A DNA stretch of 64,000 nt from Candidatus Latescibacterota bacterium (GTDB taxonomy: Bacteria; Latescibacterota; UBA2968; GCA-2709665). The DNA lies in contig CBDCOX010000002.1 in the NCBI GenBank assembly GCA_965219995.1, positions 800,001-864,000 on the forward strand. The letters are read 5' to 3'. Below the pieces are notes generated by a model, which did no database searches, had not been told where the DNA came from, and saw only the letters and a program-made list of their open reading frames with translations. Numbering within the stretch: position 1 is the stretch's first letter; every line of letters begins with the position of its first letter. This document shows positions 350 through 5,738 of this stretch, piece by piece. The translations under genes and the position numbers were made by a program.

Positions 350-1072
350 ATGTCTGTATTGGAGGCATGGTGGGAAGGCCCATCGCGTCGGGCGCGTGTG
401 GCGGTGATTGCAGAAATGTCCAGGGTGCTCGACGAAACATTCGGCGGCGCAGCCTGGGACCTCAAACGCGTACGTCCGGACGGCCTCGATGCGCTGATGC
501 GGACCATCCTGTCGCAAAACACGAACGACGAAAACCGGGACCGGGCATACGAAAGGATGCGTGCGCGGTTTCCGGTTTGGAGTGACGTGATGGCAGCAGA
601 CACGGCGGCCCTGAAGGACGCCATCCGCGTGGCAGGACTGGCGAATACGAAGGCCCCGAATATGCAGGCGTTTCTATGTTGGCTGGCGCGTGAACGGGGG
701 AGCTTGAATCTGGACTTTCTCAGGGACCTGCCGAACCGGACCGCGGTAACCATGTTGACGGAACATCGAGGCATTGGGATCAAGACGGCATATATTGTGC
801 TGGCCTTTGCCTTCGACCGCGACCTGTGTGCGGTGGATACGCATGTGTATCGCGTGCTCCGTCGGGTGGGGATTGTTTCGGCGCGATGCGGCCGTGAGAA
901 AGCCCACACGGAACTCGCGCCTCTGGTCCCGAAAGGCCAGGCCAGGCCGTTTCACATGAACATGGTTGATTTCGGCAAGACGGTGTGTACCGCCAGAAAC
1001 CCTTCCTGCGATGTCTGTCCCGTTTCCCATCTGTGCAGAACCTATCACGAAATACAGGACGGGCGCGTCTGA
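350..1072 (+). CDS. Endonuclease III family (HhH-GPD) DNA glycosylase with 4Fe-4S cluster
   Basis: TILSQNT, HhH GIGIKTA, VDTHV, C-terminal C-x6-C-x2-C-x5-C (CTARNPSCDVCPVSHLC). Confidence 0.9.
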   Translation: MSVLEAWWEGPSRRARVAVIAEMSRVLDETFGGAAWDLKRVRPDGLDALMRTILSQNTNDENRDRAYERMRARFPVWSDVMAADTAALKDAIRVAGLANTKAPNMQAFLCWLARERGSLNLDFLRDLPNRTAVTMLTEHRGIGIKTAYIVLAFAFDRDLCAVDTHVYRVLRRVGIVSARCGREKAHTELAPLVPKGQARPFHMNMVDFGKTVCTARNPSCDVCPVSHLCRTYHEIQDGRV

Positions 1073-1135: not shown

Positions 1136-2239
1136 TCAATCGATCCTGATTCGCTGAAGGTCGTACGAGTCGACGTTGTAGGGCTCGAAAGTGTCGTCGT
1201 CGCCGGGCGTATAGACCGCGACGTAGAGATTTCGATCGTCGTTATCGATGACGATGCCGCGTTCTTTGAGGTTTCCTGCCGCGAGAAGATAGTTCGTCTC
1301 CAGTTTTGTCTGCGTATTGAATTCGACGATGAACACACCCGCTTCATCGGCGTCCGTAGGCGCGACGAACAGACGTCGGCCGTCGCGGCTCAACGCAAGC
1401 CCCAGAGCGGGAGACTTGATTTCGTATTTGCCCGTCAGCGTCAGATCGCGGGCGCTGAATACCCACAGATCCTTGACGTTGCCGCGGTCATCCGGGTCCG
1501 CCAGCCCCAGAAAGAGATGGTCGTTGGAAGGTCCCATCACGAAATCGTTGATCCTGGCGGAGAAACTGAAGCGGGTTGACGTGGTTTCTGTCGATGGGAA
1601 ATGCCCTGAGGCGTCGTATTTCAGGACGTTGTTCCTGGCGGCAACGAAGAGCTTACGGTCGCCGTGGTCCATCAGCAGAGCGCCCGAACGCACATTCCCG
1701 CTGGTTTCCAGATTGTCTGCAATGGATACCGCAATCAACAGCGGTTCATCCAGCGAGGACACGTAAACAATCGAATCGGTCCCGCAGACGATGTGGGATA
1801 TGTCATTCAGCGAAAACGGAACTGTCTTAAGGATGGCGAACGCATTCAGGTCGATTACTTTCAGGTTCGATTCGCCGTTCAGGCCCACCACCAGACGGCG
1901 CCGGTCCGGGGTAATGTCGAGGTCGATGGGGTGCGAACCTACCTGAAGGCTCCCTTCCACCACCATCTGGCTGCCGGTGTGAACGCGGAGTATCCGGTTG
2001 TTTCCGTAGTCGGCAAGGTACAGATACGGCTGGACCGGGTCCATGACCATATCAGAGATGTTCACGCCGAGTTTCAGGATCTCGAAATCTGTGAATTCGT
2101 AAAACTGCTCCGGCTCTTCGTCGTCTAAATAGAGCGAACAGCCCGAGACGAGAAGAAACACGGACAGAACAAGAAAAAGGAATCGGCCGCCTGTCTTTCC
2201 CATGAGGAGAATGCCGGATCGCCTAAAAAGAGAAGACAT
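1136..2239 (-). CDS. YncE-like beta-propeller lipoprotein
   Basis: Lipobox LVSGC; repeated blade motifs (VGSHPIDLDITPDRRRLVV, LALSRDGRRLFV); overlaps the upstream barrel gene stop; start could be 2203. Confidence 0.75.
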   Translation of the reverse strand: MSSLFRRSGILLMGKTGGRFLFLVLSVFLLVSGCSLYLDDEEPEQFYEFTDFEILKLGVNISDMVMDPVQPYLYLADYGNNRILRVHTGSQMVVEGSLQVGSHPIDLDITPDRRRLVVGLNGESNLKVIDLNAFAILKTVPFSLNDISHIVCGTDSIVYVSSLDEPLLIAVSIADNLETSGNVRSGALLMDHGDRKLFVAARNNVLKYDASGHFPSTETTSTRFSFSARINDFVMGPSNDHLFLGLADPDDRGNVKDLWVFSARDLTLTGKYEIKSPALGLALSRDGRRLFVAPTDADEAGVFIVEFNTQTKLETNYLLAAGNLKERGIVIDNDDRNLYVAVYTPGDDDTFEPYNVDSYDLQRIRID

Positions 2240-3188
2240 AGGACGTGCTCAGTTCAATCAGATAGTCGGACGTCAGCTGGCTCTCGTTCACGTTCTGGAA
2301 TACGACGATGGGCAGGTGAAATTCAACGCTCAGATTGTCCAGGACATTGATCCCCAGTTCCGGCGTAAGATACGTCCACCTCCCGCCGCGTTCCCTTGTA
2401 ATCTTGCCGAACTGGTATCGGTCTCTTGACGTGATCAGGTTTTTCAAACTCAAGCCGCCGAAGAACCAGCCTTCGCCCGCATATTCCAGAGACAGGCTTG
2501 CGTGCAGTTCGTTTCCGTATTTGTAGCCGTAGATGTTCTGCCGTGTGGTGATGCGTGTGAAGACGCCACCGGAGACCGTCAGGTCTTCGAGTTGATGAAA
2601 CACATTGAACGCGAGAATCGGATCCACGCTTCCTGATCCAATCTGAAGATTGTCGGAGAAACGCTCGCCGTATTGGTCTATTGCATTAACGGATCCGTTT
2701 GCCAGCTTCATTCCAACGCCGACATTCATAGCGGGAAAACCCGCTATCAGAGGTGCGGCGTAATTCAACATGACCACGATATCGCCCAGGCCGGAAGCAT
2801 GCCGGACATACTTCCCTCCCTCATATTGATTGTGGTTCTGGCCGCGCAGAAGCACCTTTTCGTTGGTCACGGAACGAAAAGGGACGGCCAGCGCGAGACC
2901 GATGCGTCCGGTCACACCGTACGAGGCGAAGACGGTGGTCGTGGCATTATCGGTTCGCTCACGATTGACGTTCGGTATCGCGCGAGACCCGTAGTGGGGG
3001 TCGGACAGGAACTCGTAATCGTAGTGAACGCTGAGCTTCAGATGGTCCTGTACGCCCAGATTGTTCTGCATCAGGCTTCCGCCCGGAAGCACGGGGCGGC
3101 GTCAGCTGACGCCGCCTTGAGCGTTGGCGGCCTGGGCCGTGATGAATTGCGTTAAAATGAACAGGCAGAACGCTGAGTACAAACGCAT
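2223..3188 (-). CDS. Outer-membrane beta-barrel 'transporter' family protein (MetA/phenol-degradation-like), putative selenoprotein (TGA 3104-3102 = U29)
   Basis: RBS GAGGA, signal peptide MRLYSAFCLFILTQFITAQAANA, then QGGVS-TGA-RRP continuing in frame into ORF 2223..3092; SGLGD and QIGSGSVD motifs; C-terminal YVFSF barrel signal; hairpin 11 nt after TGA. Confidence 0.75.
3075..3090 (-). promoter_or_regulatory. Candidate bacterial SECIS hairpin
   Basis: mRNA UGA-CGCCGCCCCGU-GCUUCC-GGGC-GGAAGC: 11-nt spacer, 6-bp perfect stem, G-rich 4-nt loop. Confidence 0.65.
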
Positions 3189-3356
3189 ACGGGGTTTCCT
3201 CGTTCCCTGGGTTTTAAACTGGAGGCTGGCGTCCGGGTTTCGCGGGTTGAAATATACCTTACATGCGCCTGGATGGCAAGGCGGATTTTGGTTCATGAGT
3301 CCACATAGAGCCCAAATTTACATATCTTTACATAACCCGCCGCCGCTCGTTTTCGC

Positions 3357-3429: not shown

Positions 3430-3503
3430 GCTCCCGTAGCTCAGCTGGATAGAGCAACTGCCTTCTAAGCAGTAGGTCGCAGGTTCGAGTCCTGCCGGGA
3501 GTG
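3430..3503 (+). tRNA. tRNA-Arg (anticodon TCT)
   Basis: Acceptor GCTCCCG/CGGGAGT, anticodon arm ACTGC-CTTCTAA-GCAGT, T-loop GGTTCGAGTCC; CCA not encoded. Confidence 0.95.
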
Positions 3504-3519: not shown

Positions 3520-3597
3520 GGTGGGTGTAGCTCAGATGGTTAGAGCGCCTGGTTGTGGCCCAGGAGGTCGGGGGTTCAAGTCCCCTCACTCACCCCA
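3520..3597 (+). tRNA. tRNA-His (anticodon GTG)
   Basis: G-1:C73 pair, acceptor GTGGGTG/CACTCAC, anticodon loop TTGTGGC, encoded CCA. Confidence 0.95.
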
Positions 3598-3671
3598 TTT
3601 TTTTCGCTTTCTCTGGCCTTTGGTTCTCTGTCGGTTGTGGACCAGAGGTTTTTTCACGTCCACCACATTCC

Positions 3672-5033
3672 ATGATTTCGGCCGACCACCTTCGAAGCGA
3701 GCCGTTACGGGCGATGATTATCGGCCTGGATGGTACTCCATGCAGTCTGATACACCGGATGGTCTCCGACGGCCTGATGCCGAATTTCGCGAACCTGCTG
3801 CAGGGCGGAAGCCTGTCGTATATGGAGTCCGTATTGCCCACGGTCTCATCGGTGGCCTGGGCGTCGCTGGTAACCGGGTGCAATCCGGGCAAGCACAATA
3901 TCTATGGCTTCATCGATCGTGTGCCGCAGACCCACGAAATGTACATCCCGACGTCCCGAACAATGCGAGCCAGGACGTGGACGGAGATTTTCAGCGGGAT
4001 GGGCGGGCGTGTCTTTTCCATGGGCGTGCCGACGACCTACCCCCCAAAGCCGGTGAACGGCATTCAGATTTCGGGCTTTCTGGCGCCGGACTTGAAACGG
4101 GCAACCTATCCCACCGATGTGGCAGACCTGTTGTCTGAGATGGGGTACAAAATCGACATTGACGCGTGGCTAGCCCGCCGGGACACGGAGAGATTTCTGG
4201 ACGATGTATTCCGGGCTCTGGAGCGACGGTTCGACGCGATGTTCCACTTCCTGGACCAGGAGCCATGGGACCTGTTTGTCGCGCATGTTCTGGAAACGGA
4301 CAGATTGCACCATTTTCTGTGGGGACTTTTTGAGGACGGCAGCGAGACTTATCTGCCCTGGTTCAACCGGTTTTATGCCCGGGTTGACCGTGCCATCGGA
4401 GAAGTCACGAACCGCCTTGACGACGACGTATTGCTGATGATTGTATCCGACCATGGATTCTGCAAGTTGAAGTATGAAGTACATTTGAATTTCTGGCTTC
4501 GACAGGCAGGCTATTTGCGTACCCCGGTTCGACAGGCCAAAGGACTTCGCGACCTGGCGCCGGGCTCGCGTTGTTACTCACTGTTGCCCGGGCGCATGTA
4601 TATCTCTCTGCGCGGCCGCGAACGCGGTGGATGCGTGGCGCCCGGGGCGGAGTACGAGTCAGTGAGACAGGACATCGCCGACGGACTGATGGAGATCCGA
4701 AATCCTGTAACGGGTGTACCGGTGATCCGGAGGGTCTTCAGGCGCGAGGAACTCTATACCGGCGATGCATTCGACCTGGCGCCGGACCTGGTGGCCATGC
4801 CGGAGGACGGGTATGATTTGAAGGGTGGATTCGACAAAGAGGAATTGATGACGCGCGGTCCGGTAAACGGCACCCATACCTTCTCGGACGCGATGTTTTT
4901 TGTCAATCGCAAGGTGGATTTATTGCCACGGCTTCGCGTGATCGACGTGTTTCCGACGCTTTTTGATGCCGTCGGTCTGAACGTCCCTGCCGGTGTCGAC
5001 GGGCGGTCCGTCGTTGCCGGCAGCGTGAACTGA
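3672..5033 (+). CDS. Alkaline phosphatase superfamily / type I phosphodiesterase-nucleotide pyrophosphatase
   Basis: IIGLDG, TG.NPGKH.IYGF, ETDRLHH, IVSDHGF, NGTH motifs; start trimmed from 3555, which lies inside tRNA-His. Confidence 0.85.
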   Translation: MISADHLRSEPLRAMIIGLDGTPCSLIHRMVSDGLMPNFANLLQGGSLSYMESVLPTVSSVAWASLVTGCNPGKHNIYGFIDRVPQTHEMYIPTSRTMRARTWTEIFSGMGGRVFSMGVPTTYPPKPVNGIQISGFLAPDLKRATYPTDVADLLSEMGYKIDIDAWLARRDTERFLDDVFRALERRFDAMFHFLDQEPWDLFVAHVLETDRLHHFLWGLFEDGSETYLPWFNRFYARVDRAIGEVTNRLDDDVLLMIVSDHGFCKLKYEVHLNFWLRQAGYLRTPVRQAKGLRDLAPGSRCYSLLPGRMYISLRGRERGGCVAPGAEYESVRQDIADGLMEIRNPVTGVPVIRRVFRREELYTGDAFDLAPDLVAMPEDGYDLKGGFDKEELMTRGPVNGTHTFSDAMFFVNRKVDLLPRLRVIDVFPTLFDAVGLNVPAGVDGRSVVAGSVN

Positions 5034-5105: not shown

Positions 5106-5738
5106 ATGAAACCTGGAGATTTCGCTTTCGGAAGCGTCTTGTCGAAATTGTTCCTGATTGCGCTCGCAACGGGTGTATCGGCGGCTTTCGCTCACGCCGA
5201 CCGCGGCCACGTGCTGGACACCAGCGAAGAGAACATGGAGCGGATCGCCGGGTCGCTCGGGGTACGGTGTAGTTACTGTCATACCTCACGGAGGCCGGAT
5301 GGAAGACCTGACTTCGAAGCGCCTTCCCTGTTCAAGGAGACAGCCGTCCATATGAAGGTACACTTTGTGGACGGCCTGAAAACCGCGGATGGGAAATCGC
5401 TGGACTGCCTGTCCTGCCACCAGGGGAACGCCCGATTTATTCCGCGTGACCTCAAGGATGCCAAACCGTCCAACATGTCCGAGCGGCTGCCCCGGCGGGA
5501 GATCTTTCGGAAGATGAAGGCCATTGAGAAGGCGCTGGGGGTTAACTGCGAATTCTGCCATGTCAGGCGCGAAGACGGACGCCTCGCCCCGGAACAGCCG
5601 ACGAAGCACAAGCTGATGGCCAAATACATGATGGACCACTACGAGGGTGCGTTGATCACGTCAGGCGGGAAGCCGGTCACCTGCGCAACCTGCCACGCGG
5701 GTACAGCTGCATTTCTGCCGCGCTCGACGGGTGAGTGA
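5106..5738 (+). CDS. Tetraheme c-type cytochrome (two repeats resembling reaction-centre cytochrome c subunit domains)
   Basis: Signal peptide (AFAHA); four CxxCH motifs: CSYCH, CLSCH, CEFCH, CATCH; duplicated M-x5-LGV-x-C motif. Confidence 0.85.
   Translation: MKPGDFAFGSVLSKLFLIALATGVSAAFAHADRGHVLDTSEENMERIAGSLGVRCSYCHTSRRPDGRPDFEAPSLFKETAVHMKVHFVDGLKTADGKSLDCLSCHQGNARFIPRDLKDAKPSNMSERLPRREIFRKMKAIEKALGVNCEFCHVRREDGRLAPEQPTKHKLMAKYMMDHYEGALITSGGKPVTCATCHAGTAAFLPRSTGE

Follow-up and report, generated by a model that had tools for sequence, protein, structure and literature searches.

Does the TGA codon at 3104-3102 of the Latescibacterota DNA analysed here (a stretch of 64,000 nt, called the window below) end a short leader peptide, or is it read as selenocysteine (Sec) inside a single gene for an outer-membrane barrel? 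Table-11 translation yields a barrel ORF at 2223..3092 that opens with GTG 3092 right 3' of the TGA and is devoid of a signal peptide, as an earlier note on this DNA had stated. That note had also placed a complete signal peptide in frame upstream, parted from the barrel by the TGA only, and a hairpin shortly after it. Translation with TGA as Sec (U) gave the following predicted features:

2223..3188, minus strand: full barrel selenoprotein gene, 321 codons plus TAG stop, translated with TGA as U
3197..3201, minus strand: GAGGA ribosome-binding site, 8 nt 5' of ATG 3188, read from the sequence
3120..3188, minus strand: signal peptide of 23 codons ending AQAANA, read by eye, with cleavage predicted before Gln24
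3102..3104, minus strand: TGA, the candidate Sec codon, residue 29 of the precursor and residue 6 of the mature protein (QGGVS-U-RRPVLPGGS)
3075..3090, minus strand: SECIS-like hairpin GCUUCC-GGGC-GGAAGC, beginning 11 nt 3' of the UGA
2226..3119, minus strand: mature protein of 298 residues without Cys, a Sec-bearing N-terminal segment followed by the barrel
1136..2239, minus strand: seven-bladed beta-propeller lipoprotein gene, lipobox LVSGC, with Cys34 counted from ATG 2239; alternative start ATG 2203

The start codon (ATG, 3188-3186) opens the signal peptide MRLYSAFCLFILTQFITAQAANA, which is followed by QGGVS and the TGA, and the readthrough frame stays open to the TAG at 2225-2223. A spacer of 11 nt (3101-3091) leads to the hairpin arms GCTTCC (3090-3085) and GGAAGC (3080-3075) and the loop GGGC (3084-3081), lying within the codons for L-P-G-G-S, and the mature readthrough protein, beginning QGGVSU, has 0 Cys. 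All of these particulars agree with the earlier note, as does the close junction with the lipoprotein gene, which is co-directional with the barrel gene and either overlaps it by 17 nt (from ATG 2239) or starts 19 nt past its stop (from ATG 2203). Regarding assembly support, the contigs of four runs over 3100-3135 had no difference at 3102-3104 among the differences listed, and a contig of run X7 spanning 2230-3250 had 8 differences, none of them at the TGA; in this comparison X2 may be the window's own source and a further 33 lower-supported differences fall outside the listing. The TGA is thus carried by contigs of other runs.

When relatives were compared, TGA was found at the homologous codon in 93/95 genome loci and in 64/73 metagenome loci, reaching down to 30% identity, and no sense codon occupied the Sec position in any readable family locus of these two sets; the loci without TGA were contig ends, one disrupted gene that two collections share, and barrels that are unrelated or only distantly related. 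Position U29 is therefore matched in homologs by the same TGA and not by codons for Trp, Arg or Gly, the substitutions that the earlier note had named as signs of a simple mutation. Every ortholog and paralog match contained a single TGA in 14/14 same-genus genomes and in 2/2 genomes of a second genus, and the codon was also kept in a 30%-identical homolog from another family of the phylum. The motif [GP]GVS-TGA-RRPVLPGG was present in 33/33 loci, and a variable hydrophobic leader with an A-x-A↓Q site was found in the same frame in 33/33 relatives' loci and also across phyla. The barrel family spans records titled Latescibacterota, KSB1, Calditrichaceae, Marinimicrobia/Neomarinimicrobiota, Fidelibacterota and FCB group, with hosts in several uncultivated bacterial phyla, mostly marine. 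These comparisons of sequence strongly support the prediction that window positions 3188..2223 on the minus strand form one gene for a secreted selenoprotein.

The hairpin that had been proposed was also present in the homologs, with compensatory changes. In an ungapped alignment, 57/57 distinct sequences had a stem at the fixed distance of 11 nt from the UGA and a loop N-G-[GU]-N. Columns 24 and 33, which correspond to the synonymous third bases of a Leu codon (CTN) and a Gly codon (GGN), were paired in 57/57 sequences (CG in 34, UA in 19, UG in 2, AU in 1 and GC in 1; unpaired in 0). On a tree computed after removal of the 20 N-terminal columns, this pair underwent at least 12 changes of state, and 7/7 independent contrasts changed on both sides (sign test, p = 0.016). 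The covariation score was 0.248, compared to a shuffled mean of 0.123, and was reached by 0/500 shuffles, with all slid controls lower, and RNAalifold recovered a 5-bp core from the alignment. Taken from these alignments, the indication is that pairing of the hairpin is under selection. In the same genome, selD has a TGA followed after 11 nt by CAGTCC-GGTC-GGACTG, a geometry equal to that of the barrel gene.

A genome-wide scan for the bare pattern (TGA, 10-12 nt, a 6-bp stem and a loop N-G-[GT]-N) found 84 sites after TGA, that is, 58.6 per 100,000 TGA, compared to 59-74 per 100,000 after TGG, TGC and TGT, and thus revealed no enrichment after TGA over these other triplets; the chance of the pattern at one given TGA is about 6e-4. 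It is because of conservation and covariation across relatives, and not because of the bare pattern, that the finding exceeds chance. Among the 14 open-frame matches of the scan, only selD and the window barrel gene resemble real proteins, and the barrel paralog escaped the scan owing to a mismatch in its outermost pair. Folds of single sequences were inconsistent, the conserved hairpin often not being chosen (for the window sequence, the minimum-energy fold preferred a competing GC-rich pairing over the 6-bp hairpin), so the alignment was relied on instead.

The machinery for Sec, which the earlier note had listed for checking, is present in the genome: profile matches were obtained for selA (473.8 bits), selB (366.8 bits) and selD (359.9 bits, with its in-frame TGA), along with a tRNA-Sec gene (selC) with anticodon TCA, and selA, selB and tRNA-Sec are adjacent at C2:1802578-1805869. 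Among the barrel-bearing genomes tested, selB was above the cut-off in 23/27 and was not found in 4/27, all four being metagenome assemblies that are possibly incomplete (the completeness of one is given as 80%). In the window genome, 1023/1854 ORFs of 400 aa or more end in TGA, which makes it the most frequent ordinary stop codon, and therefore the code is not reassigned.

Other readings of the TGA were weighed against these data. A nonsense mutation, a pseudogene or a sequencing error in the window genome would account for the bare presence of a stop codon and nothing further, and it is refuted by the retention of the TGA in the genome and metagenome loci counted above, over many assemblies, and in the other runs' contigs over the window; its probability is negligible. 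That the TGA is a true stop, ending a 28-codon leader ORF, with independent initiation of the barrel ORF at GTG 3092 and a regulatory role for the hairpin, agrees with the way in which gene callers annotate such loci, as 64/69 database homologs begin right after the TGA. However, a barrel started at GTG 3092 would lack a signal peptide and could not be exported to the outer membrane. In all loci, moreover, the conserved peptide motif runs through the TGA in a single frame, and in the non-Sec relatives one uninterrupted ORF encodes both the signal peptide and a Cys-Cys at the corresponding place, all of which makes a true stop extremely improbable. As regards readthrough of the UGA as Trp, Cys or Gly, whether the decoding were near-cognate or reassigned, W does stand at this position in database entries P0037, P0038, P0060, P0073, P0171 and P0188, but the loci behind W entries have TGA (P0037 corresponds to locus L105, where the codon is TGA), and these entries are most simply explained as gene calls made under a code in which TGA is Trp. 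Such readthrough is also at odds with the use of TGA to end long ORFs, with a hairpin of selD-like geometry selected for pairing and with the Sec machinery in the genome, and we regard it as very unlikely. Selenium incorporation is predicted for members of the barrel family, and the window barrel very probably does contain Sec.

The Sec would be a lone one. The mature relatives have 0 Cys in 37/38 cases, the exception (L033) being cut short, and a Cys form was not found inside the close barrel family, Cys appearing only in distant relatives. In a profile search, 19 matches at E <= 1e-30 constituted the Sec family, and the next tier consisted of full-length proteins with a mature N-terminus Q-x-C-C. 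At the aligned position, Ser is found in database proteins P0015, P0019 and P0081 and Glu in P0093, and because of these four relatives the Sec position seems dispensable in places. Sec thus appears not to be indispensable everywhere, which sits badly with the role of an essential catalytic nucleophile.

The sole Pfam domain detected in the 321 residues was PF13557 (residues 95-288; E = 3.3e-5), by the small margin of 24.5 bits against a cut-off of 22. The AF2 model of the barrel had a pLDDT of 84 and a pTM of 0.82, with a pLDDT of about 52 for the first 20 residues, and its top Foldseek matches were FapF (5o65) and the COG4313 channel Pput2725 (4rl8), at TM 0.66-0.73; for 4rl8 the values were E = 2.9e-11 and TM 0.66/0.73, those of FapF being slightly better. 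Pput2725 is, like the window protein, a small monomeric barrel whose first strand is preceded by a short N-terminal segment, although identity over the structural alignment is 11%. In this channel of Pseudomonas putida F1, a stretch of about 14 N-terminal residues enters the lumen at its periplasmic end and fills it, as described in the cited part of PMC4493636. By analogy, the Sec-bearing segment would lie within the pore or at its periplasmic opening; because of the low pLDDT of the modelled N-terminus, the lumen position is taken from this 11%-identical analog. Known COG4313 members are associated with taking up hydrophobic compounds, and the account given by that part of PMC4493636 mentions no redox residue in them, whereas the window family adds a Sec on the N-terminal segment, an interior whose sequence is very strongly conserved, and fixed partners (a propeller and a thioredoxin).

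Outer-membrane barrels with Sec have been tabulated, namely the GSU2204 family of MtrB/PioB type (NF041027) and a TonB-dependent receptor with an FCYXU motif (NF049945), both described in the cited part of PMC13188914 as beta-barrels predicted to hold Sec by means of a bacterial SECIS. Their folds and sizes are unrelated to those of the window barrel, and an NCBIfam search with the readthrough protein returned 0 families at E <= 0.1, matching neither NF041027 nor NF049945. Moreover, the FCYXU receptor has a CxxU with a partner Cys (PMC13188914, same part), in contrast to the lone Sec here. The earlier note had given ExtI as an example of a Sec outer-membrane channel, which proved mistaken: in the portion of PMC5877670 that deals with this cluster, its Sec protein is the cytochrome ExtKL and not the porin ExtI.

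The propeller lipoprotein gene was found directly downstream of the barrel in 45/59 loci, across phyla, as expected if homologs share this neighbour; the other 14/59 comprise 13 paralog-type loci, in 12 of which an NHL propeller is encoded upstream of the barrel, and one locus at a contig end. All 45/45 lipoproteins have the lipobox Cys, and this lipidated residue is their only conserved Cys; also conserved are a C-terminal motif PGDxDSFEPYN..S.DLQRI and, a short way past the lipobox, an acidic stretch DDEEPE. The AF2 model (pLDDT 88.6, 28 strands) retrieved generic 7-bladed propellers in Foldseek (YncE 3vgz, TM 0.75; YVTN 1l0q, TM 0.68), with WD40 proteins scoring equally, and the propeller matches in Pfam and NCBIfam were all below their cut-offs. 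The earlier description as YncE-like thus stands for the generic seven-bladed fold and fails as a sequence-family assignment. A Se-S cross-link between barrel and lipoprotein was also considered and rejected because the lipoprotein keeps only the lipidated Cys.

The SusC/SusD and BtuB/BtuG systems of Bacteroidota likewise have an outer-membrane barrel gene with a lipoprotein gene directly after it; BtuG is a beta-propeller, and the DDEEPE stretch resembles the surface-export signal of Bacteroidota lipoproteins. They differ from the window pair in that the barrel here is a small one of COG4313 type, with no domain of TonB-dependent receptors or their plugs (PF13557 being the only one in Pfam), and surface exposure of the propeller lipoprotein is only putative. 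It is likely that the barrel works together with this lipoprotein.

A TlpA-like thioredoxin is encoded upstream of the barrel in 23/59 loci, with WCxxC in 23/23 and an N-terminal hydrophobic segment, read by eye, in each of them; two representatives that were scanned matched AhpC-TSA, Thioredoxin_8 and Redoxin of Pfam above the cut-offs. An adjacent thioredoxin is missing in 36/59 loci, the window copy included, and the genome's sole ortholog adjoins the barrel paralog at G000:C2:248362-249084, a place beyond the reach of the earlier note. Thioredoxin orthologs (at least 188 bits) were found in 17/17 barrel-bearing genomes of the taxonomic family and in 0/5 of those without a barrel match (best at most 56 bits), these genomes being kin and not 22 independent events. 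Reductive periplasmic thioredoxins keep specific clients reduced, and the neighbour of the barrel resembles those of the TlpA/ResA/CcmG type in its signal or anchor sequence, its thioredoxin fold and its WCxxC, with the difference that its putative client would be a selenol on an outer-membrane barrel. As for function, which we infer, the thioredoxin neighbour favours a redox reading over uptake or metal binding.

The best explanation overall, in which we have good confidence, is a Sec barrel, for which a thioredoxin-reduced selenol and a propeller as substrate binder are proposed. The UGA at 3104-3102 is predicted to be decoded as Sec with the aid of the hairpin 11 nt downstream, the protein to be secreted by its Sec-type signal peptide, and the mature form to begin Q-G-G-V-S-U-R-R-P-V-L-P-G-G, placing the Sec on a lumen-plugging N-terminal segment in or near the periplasmic pore mouth. 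The co-inherited periplasmic TlpA-like thioredoxin (WCxxC) would keep the selenol reduced or resolve its adducts (Se-S or Se-X). The selenol itself would be the reactive group that engages a substrate of thiophilic or oxidising character, and binding of that substrate would fall to the seven-bladed propeller lipoprotein, co-transcribed with the barrel. The thioredoxin-coupled redox cycle of the selenol is a more tentative element, to which we give a little under an even chance. A far-reaching extension, which is a long shot, is that barrel, thioredoxin and propeller form a new outer-membrane device for transport or detoxification, run by periplasmic reducing power and not by TonB. The propeller would take a thiophilic cargo (for example polysulfide, elemental sulfur, a soft metal, a species of selenium or an oxidised lipid), the plug selenol would bind it covalently in the pore and the thioredoxin would free it into the periplasm by Se-S exchange, Sec being needed as only a selenol would be nucleophilic and reversible enough.

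Instead, the selenol could coordinate a soft metal or metalloid (species of Hg, Cu(I), As, Se or Te) and capture it, or gate its passage, in the pore, with the thioredoxin only keeping the site reduced. Distant relatives have vicinal Cys-Cys, CxC or C-x4-C at the corresponding N-terminal place, motifs that are typical thiophilic metal sites, and the two Arg after the Sec could bind an oxyanion. Among five loci of distant relatives inspected, one barrel (L035) lies beside a regulator that is MerR-like by eye and another (L200) comes after a putative small Cys-rich secreted protein, but these neighbours belong to relatives of 25-28% identity, and beside the Sec-family loci there are no conserved genes for metal resistance or uptake. 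A 2026 review, in the part cited, links Sec in transporter subunits mostly with metal or metalloid handling (PMC13188914); however, a lone selenol without a second thiol is a poor chelator, and we consider a metal-ligand role possible, if rather unlikely. A structural or assembly role of the Sec, for example in a diselenide linking two barrels or in a Se-S bond with a partner, without any action on a transported substrate, is improbable. The location of Sec on a flexible tail (that of low pLDDT) and the existence of Ser and Glu variants would suit such a role, and the thioredoxin could aid folding and not catalysis, but the presence of the costly Sec, and not Cys, in every readable family locus points to a chemistry beyond that of Cys, and the lipoprotein offers no free, conserved Cys for such a bond.

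If the preferred reading is true, it adds a family of selenoproteins whose Sec has an unexpected location, in the plug of a small channel of the outer membrane, and which is conserved over several phylum-level groups that include the ocean-abundant Marinimicrobia. A search of the literature and of two reviews ('PF13557', 'phenol' and 'porin', 0 occurrences) found no description of this barrel family, although supplementary tables may list more families. Homology-based selenoprotein finders need close Cys homologs, as stated in the cited section of PMC12013277, and the family may have been overlooked because it has almost none. There is a systematic annotation error as well, the 64/69 database homologs mentioned above being truncated at the Sec codon and others carrying a false Trp. 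The Sec barrel also offers a concrete test case for the role of a partnerless selenol outside the cytoplasm and for whether periplasmic thioredoxins service outer-membrane proteins.

Finally, the Sec family points to a much larger, uncharacterised set of PF13557 barrels with an N-terminal Cys-Cys (P0091, P0092, P0095, P0096, P0098, P0099, P0102 and others), from Bacteroidota/Balneolota and without a described function. They are of equal length, share the signal-peptide site A↓Q and have CC where the Sec family has S-U, and they differ in having two vicinal Cys instead of one Sec, with E values of 1e-26 to 1e-17 against the Sec-family profile. In P0099, the reported match start sets the Sec against the second Cys, and P0096 appears in the protein atlas among unnamed PF13557 clusters.

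The barrel gene is read on the reverse strand, and the coordinates and features described for it in the earlier note matched the window sequence. The features of this locus and of the host genome (contig G000:C2) are listed below.

Features of the barrel locus in the window and related genes elsewhere in the host genome
3188, minus strand: ATG start of the barrel gene, with GAGGA 8 nt 5′ of the ATG
From ATG 3188, minus strand: signal peptide of the barrel by translation, 23 residues, ending AQAANA
3104-3102, minus strand: in-frame TGA of the barrel gene, between QGGVS and RRPVLPGGSLMQ…
3090-3075, minus strand: hairpin GCTTCC-GGGC-GGAAGC, 11 nt 3′ of the barrel TGA
2225-2223, minus strand: barrel stop TAG, in the same frame as ATG 3188 and the post-TGA RRPVLPGGSLMQ…
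1136..2239, minus strand: gene of a lipobox (LVSGC) protein, next after the barrel, overlapping or abutting the barrel stop
350-1072, plus strand: flanking gene, endonuclease III-like protein
3555-5033, plus strand: flanking gene, type I phosphodiesterase/nucleotide pyrophosphatase family protein
5106-5738, plus strand: flanking gene, multihaem c-type cytochrome
G000:C2:247325-250829 (locus L045), outside the window: row of NHL propeller, thioredoxin, second barrel and SAM-dependent methyltransferase
G000:C2:1802578-1805869: selA, selB and tRNA-Sec, clustered, with selD elsewhere
G000:C2:2652925-2653848 (locus L014): selD, itself a selenoprotein gene (…TCG-TGA-AAKV…)

The table-11 ORF (2223..3092) starts just 3′ of the TGA and is without a signal peptide, and the mature readthrough protein read from the window contains no Cys. 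The opposite strand carries tRNA-Arg(TCT) (3430-3503, +) and tRNA-His(GTG) (3521-3597, +) immediately upstream of the barrel promoter region. The phosphodiesterase and multihaem cytochrome genes are syntenic in same-genus loci and show no conservation beside the barrel in other phyla.

Six-frame searches revealed exactly one TGA inside each barrel match in 14/14 same-genus genomes, where the ortholog is 79-94% identical and the paralog, a second barrel copy, about 52%, and one inside each barrel copy in both genomes (2/2) of a second genus; a 30%-identical homolog from another family of the phylum also has one internal TGA. All 33 loci first fetched carry the motif [GP]GVS-TGA-RRPVLPGG, with a variable hydrophobic leader and an A-x-A|Q site in frame upstream of the TGA. 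A scan of the genome collection, with one genome per species, gave 61 loci, titled Latescibacterota (some 'Gemmatimonadota'), KSB1, Calditrichaceae, Marinimicrobia/Neomarinimicrobiota, Fidelibacterota and FCB group. Together with the earlier loci, TGA occupied the Sec codon in 93 of 95 genome loci, many of them the same genomes twice (57 distinct sequences around the TGA); the two misses were L125, in which unrelated sequence takes the place of the N-terminal part, and L127, an unrelated Oligoflexia barrel. Among metagenome loci the figure was 64/73, the nine misses being six loci that run off a contig end, the disrupted gene again and two distant barrels. No sense codon was found at this position in any family member with a readable N-terminus, and contigs from other sequencing runs aligned to the window did not differ at 3102-3104. 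Thus, the TGA is kept in homologs and backed by independent assemblies, as expected from the earlier note and not from a simple nonsense mutation or sequencing error.

In L125 and L192, both from one Marinimicrobia lineage, the barrel match starts only at residue 123, and the unrelated AT-rich DNA with many stops upstream of it suggests a truncated or rearranged copy. Public phylum labels conflict, as near-identical genomes of the host genus are recorded either as 'Candidatus Latescibacterota' or as 'Gemmatimonadota'.

Six full-length public proteins (P0037, P0038, P0060, P0073, P0171 and P0188) show Trp at the Sec position. Since the matching loci carry TGA at that codon (e.g. L105 for P0037), the database 'W' is most simply explained by genes called with TGA read as Trp; 64/69 of the other database homologs are truncated and start just 3′ of the TGA. 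A reassigned code with TGA as sense was ruled out for the host genome, where TGA is the commonest ordinary stop, ending 1023 of 1854 ORFs of at least 400 aa. The host Sec machinery, which the earlier note had left to be confirmed, was found in full (selA, selB, tRNA-Sec and selD). Among barrel-bearing genomes, selB scored above its curated cut-off in 23 of the 27 tested and was not found in four, all of them metagenome assemblies and possibly incomplete (one rated 80% complete).

The bare hairpin pattern (TGA, 10-12 nt, a 6-bp stem and an N-G-[GT]-N loop) occurs at 84 sites in the 5.4-Mb genome, at 58.6 per 100,000 TGA and at about equal rates after TGG, TGC and TGT; therefore, the case rests on comparison with relatives. 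In ungapped alignment, 57/57 distinct sequences have the first base of the stem at the same 11-nt spacing from the UGA, with the consensus N-C-U-N-C-C / N-G-[GU]-N / G-G-N-A-G-N over L-P-G-G-S codons. Its fourth pair joins the third positions of Leu (CTN) and Gly (GGN), both synonymous, and was CG in 34 sequences, UA in 19, UG in 2, AU in 1, GC in 1 and unpaired in none (n=57). The covariation score of this pair was 0.248 compared with 0.123 after shuffling; the 0.248 was reached in 0/500 shuffles and by none of the slid controls. Mapped on a tree from the protein sequences of 36 members, with the first 20 columns left out, the pair changed state at least 12 times, and in 7/7 phylogenetically independent contrasts a 5′ change was accompanied by the matching 3′ change (sign test, p = 0.016). 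RNAalifold recovered the 5-bp core of the stem unaided; the outermost pair is looser (unpaired in 21/57 sequences), and the window RNA folded as a single sequence prefers a competing GC-rich pairing over the conserved hairpin. The hairpin of host selD (TGA + 11 nt + CAGTCC-GGTC-GGACTG) matches that of the barrel in its distance from the TGA and in the sizes of stem and loop. Conservation of the hairpin in homologs, with compensatory changes in the fourth pair, supports the earlier proposal, and a minimal SECIS almost certainly directs decoding of the UGA as Sec.

When 1.84 billion representatives were searched with a profile, 2309 matched at E <= 1e-3 and only 19 at E <= 1e-30, the latter being the Sec family, mostly as calls truncated at the N-terminus. 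Below them (E 1e-26 to 1e-17) come full-length barrels of 300-330 residues whose mature N-terminus reads Q-[GSNT]-C-C-… (e.g. P0091, P0092, P0095, P0096, P0098, P0099, P0102, P0107, P0119, P0128, P0144, P0159 and P0190). The match to P0099 starts with query position 5 at residue 28, placing Sec (query 6) opposite the pair's second Cys. True selenoproteins usually show such a correspondence of Sec with Cys. Because the Cys-Cys pair lies at the aligned N-terminus, the Sec family seems to be a branch of a larger, undescribed group of 'N-terminal Cys-Cys' barrels, assigned to Bacteroidota and Balneolota. Other N-termini have C-S-C (P0197), C-x4-C (P0180, L036), Ser (P0081) or Glu (P0093), and two 50%-identical database proteins (P0015, P0019) have Ser at the Sec position. 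No Cys form was found within the close Sec family, which is unusual.

Cys-rich N-terminal tails (SCGTSSCP; CRASCGSANC; QGCCTPGSSPLGG) were also seen in the distant PF13557 barrels L036 (1462-2580, -), L200 (1924-3382, +) and L199. By eye, L036 adjoins a di-haem peroxidase/MauG-like gene and L200 a small Cys-rich secreted protein; L035 (86-2103, +), a distant barrel without such a tail, adjoins a MerR-like regulator.

The readthrough protein matched Pfam PF13557 (Phenol_MetA_deg, COG4313 family) just over the cut-off and had no match in NCBIfam. An AlphaFold2 model from 36 readthrough sequences reached pLDDT 84 and pTM 0.82, with only ~52 pLDDT over the first 20 residues; its best structural matches were the FapF barrel and the COG4313 channel Pput2725 (4rl8; TM 0.66/0.73). 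Comparison shows one gene, with an exported COG4313-type barrel as its predicted product. In Pput2725, as described in the part of the paper available, about 14 N-terminal residues enter the barrel from the periplasm and lie in the lumen, leaving the pore almost shut (PMC4493636). By analogy only with this lumen-filling segment, Sec (mature residue 6) may lie within or at the channel's periplasmic opening.

The neighbourhood was surveyed in 59 barrel loci from the genome collection. In 45 of them a propeller lipoprotein gene immediately follows the barrel gene in the same orientation, so the neighbour noticed earlier is conserved; the other 14 comprise one contig end and 13 paralog-type loci, 12 of which have an NHL-repeat propeller upstream. 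The lipoprotein was modelled as a seven-bladed propeller (pLDDT 88.6), in agreement with the fold implied by the earlier label 'YncE-like', but YVTN and WD40 proteins resemble it about as much as YncE does. Its only conserved Cys is that of the lipobox; conservation extends to an acidic stretch after this residue and to the C-terminal motif PGDxDSFEPYN..S.DLQRI. In 29/59 loci the barrel adjoins the gene of a large protein with FG-GAP/ASPIC-UnbV repeats and a C-terminal sorting domain for type IX secretion, often on the opposite strand (e.g. L081:328-2160).

In at least 23/59 loci the barrel gene is immediately preceded by the gene of a small exported protein with a thioredoxin fold and WCxxC, a lower bound, as the ORF filter lost it in two loci. 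These 23 loci span KSB1, Calditrichaceae, several Marinimicrobia/Fidelibacterota lineages and the Latescibacterota paralog, and the two representatives scanned scored above cut-offs for Pfam AhpC-TSA, Thioredoxin_8 and Redoxin. The host has one copy of the thioredoxin gene, next to the paralog (~52% identical to the window barrel, with the same TGA and hairpin); the window copy has the propeller only. The NHL propeller-thioredoxin-barrel-methyltransferase row is conserved in 14/14 same-genus genomes. In the taxonomic family, 17/17 genomes with the barrel had a strong ortholog of the thioredoxin (>=188 bits) vs. 0/5 without a barrel match (best score <=56 bits), a co-occurrence amounting to few independent events because the genomes are close kin. 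Comparison of the loci thus shows a barrel inherited with a propeller and, in many lineages, with a dedicated thioredoxin.

As for function, a lone selenol on a mobile N-terminal plug would be reachable from the periplasm and would react with a thiophilic or oxidising substrate handled by the channel and the propeller, and the TlpA-like thioredoxin would keep it reduced or resolve its adducts. Such a thioredoxin-coupled redox role is put forward tentatively, at somewhat under even chances. The Ser and Glu variants at the Sec position and the lack of an adjacent thioredoxin in 36/59 loci count against an indispensable catalytic nucleophile. Alternatively, the selenol could bind a metal or metalloid and gate the pore, which we consider unlikely, or Sec could have a structural role, which appears quite improbable.

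Bacterial SECIS-dependent selenoproteins and COG4313 barrels are already known kinds; what is new is a Sec on the N-terminal segment of a barrel with a fixed partner set, whose function we infer. The available text of a 2026 review tabulates two outer-membrane barrels among prokaryotic selenoproteins, the GSU2204-family MtrB/PioB-type and a TonB-dependent receptor with an FCYXU motif, and does not mention PF13557, phenol or porin (PMC13188914); a 2022 review, in its accessible portion, gives the same picture. No description of the family was found in the main texts of the literature searched, and supplementary tables might hold one. Judged from sequence, the Sec barrels are a genuine and conserved family of selenoproteins that appears to be unlisted. 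According to the accessible text of the deep-Sep paper, homology-based selenoprotein finders require close Cys homologs (PMC12013277), and the family may have been overlooked because it lacks them. ExtI, given in the earlier note as a Sec-containing outer-membrane channel, proved to be no such precedent, since in the part of the paper available the Sec protein of that cluster is the cytochrome ExtKL and not the porin (PMC5877670).

Elsewhere in the host genome, at G000:C2:3765156 (+), another TGA is followed by a hairpin with frames open on both sides (…LTFFRGTW-U-RRS…); this may reflect a Sec site like those of thioredoxins or peroxiredoxins, or chance.
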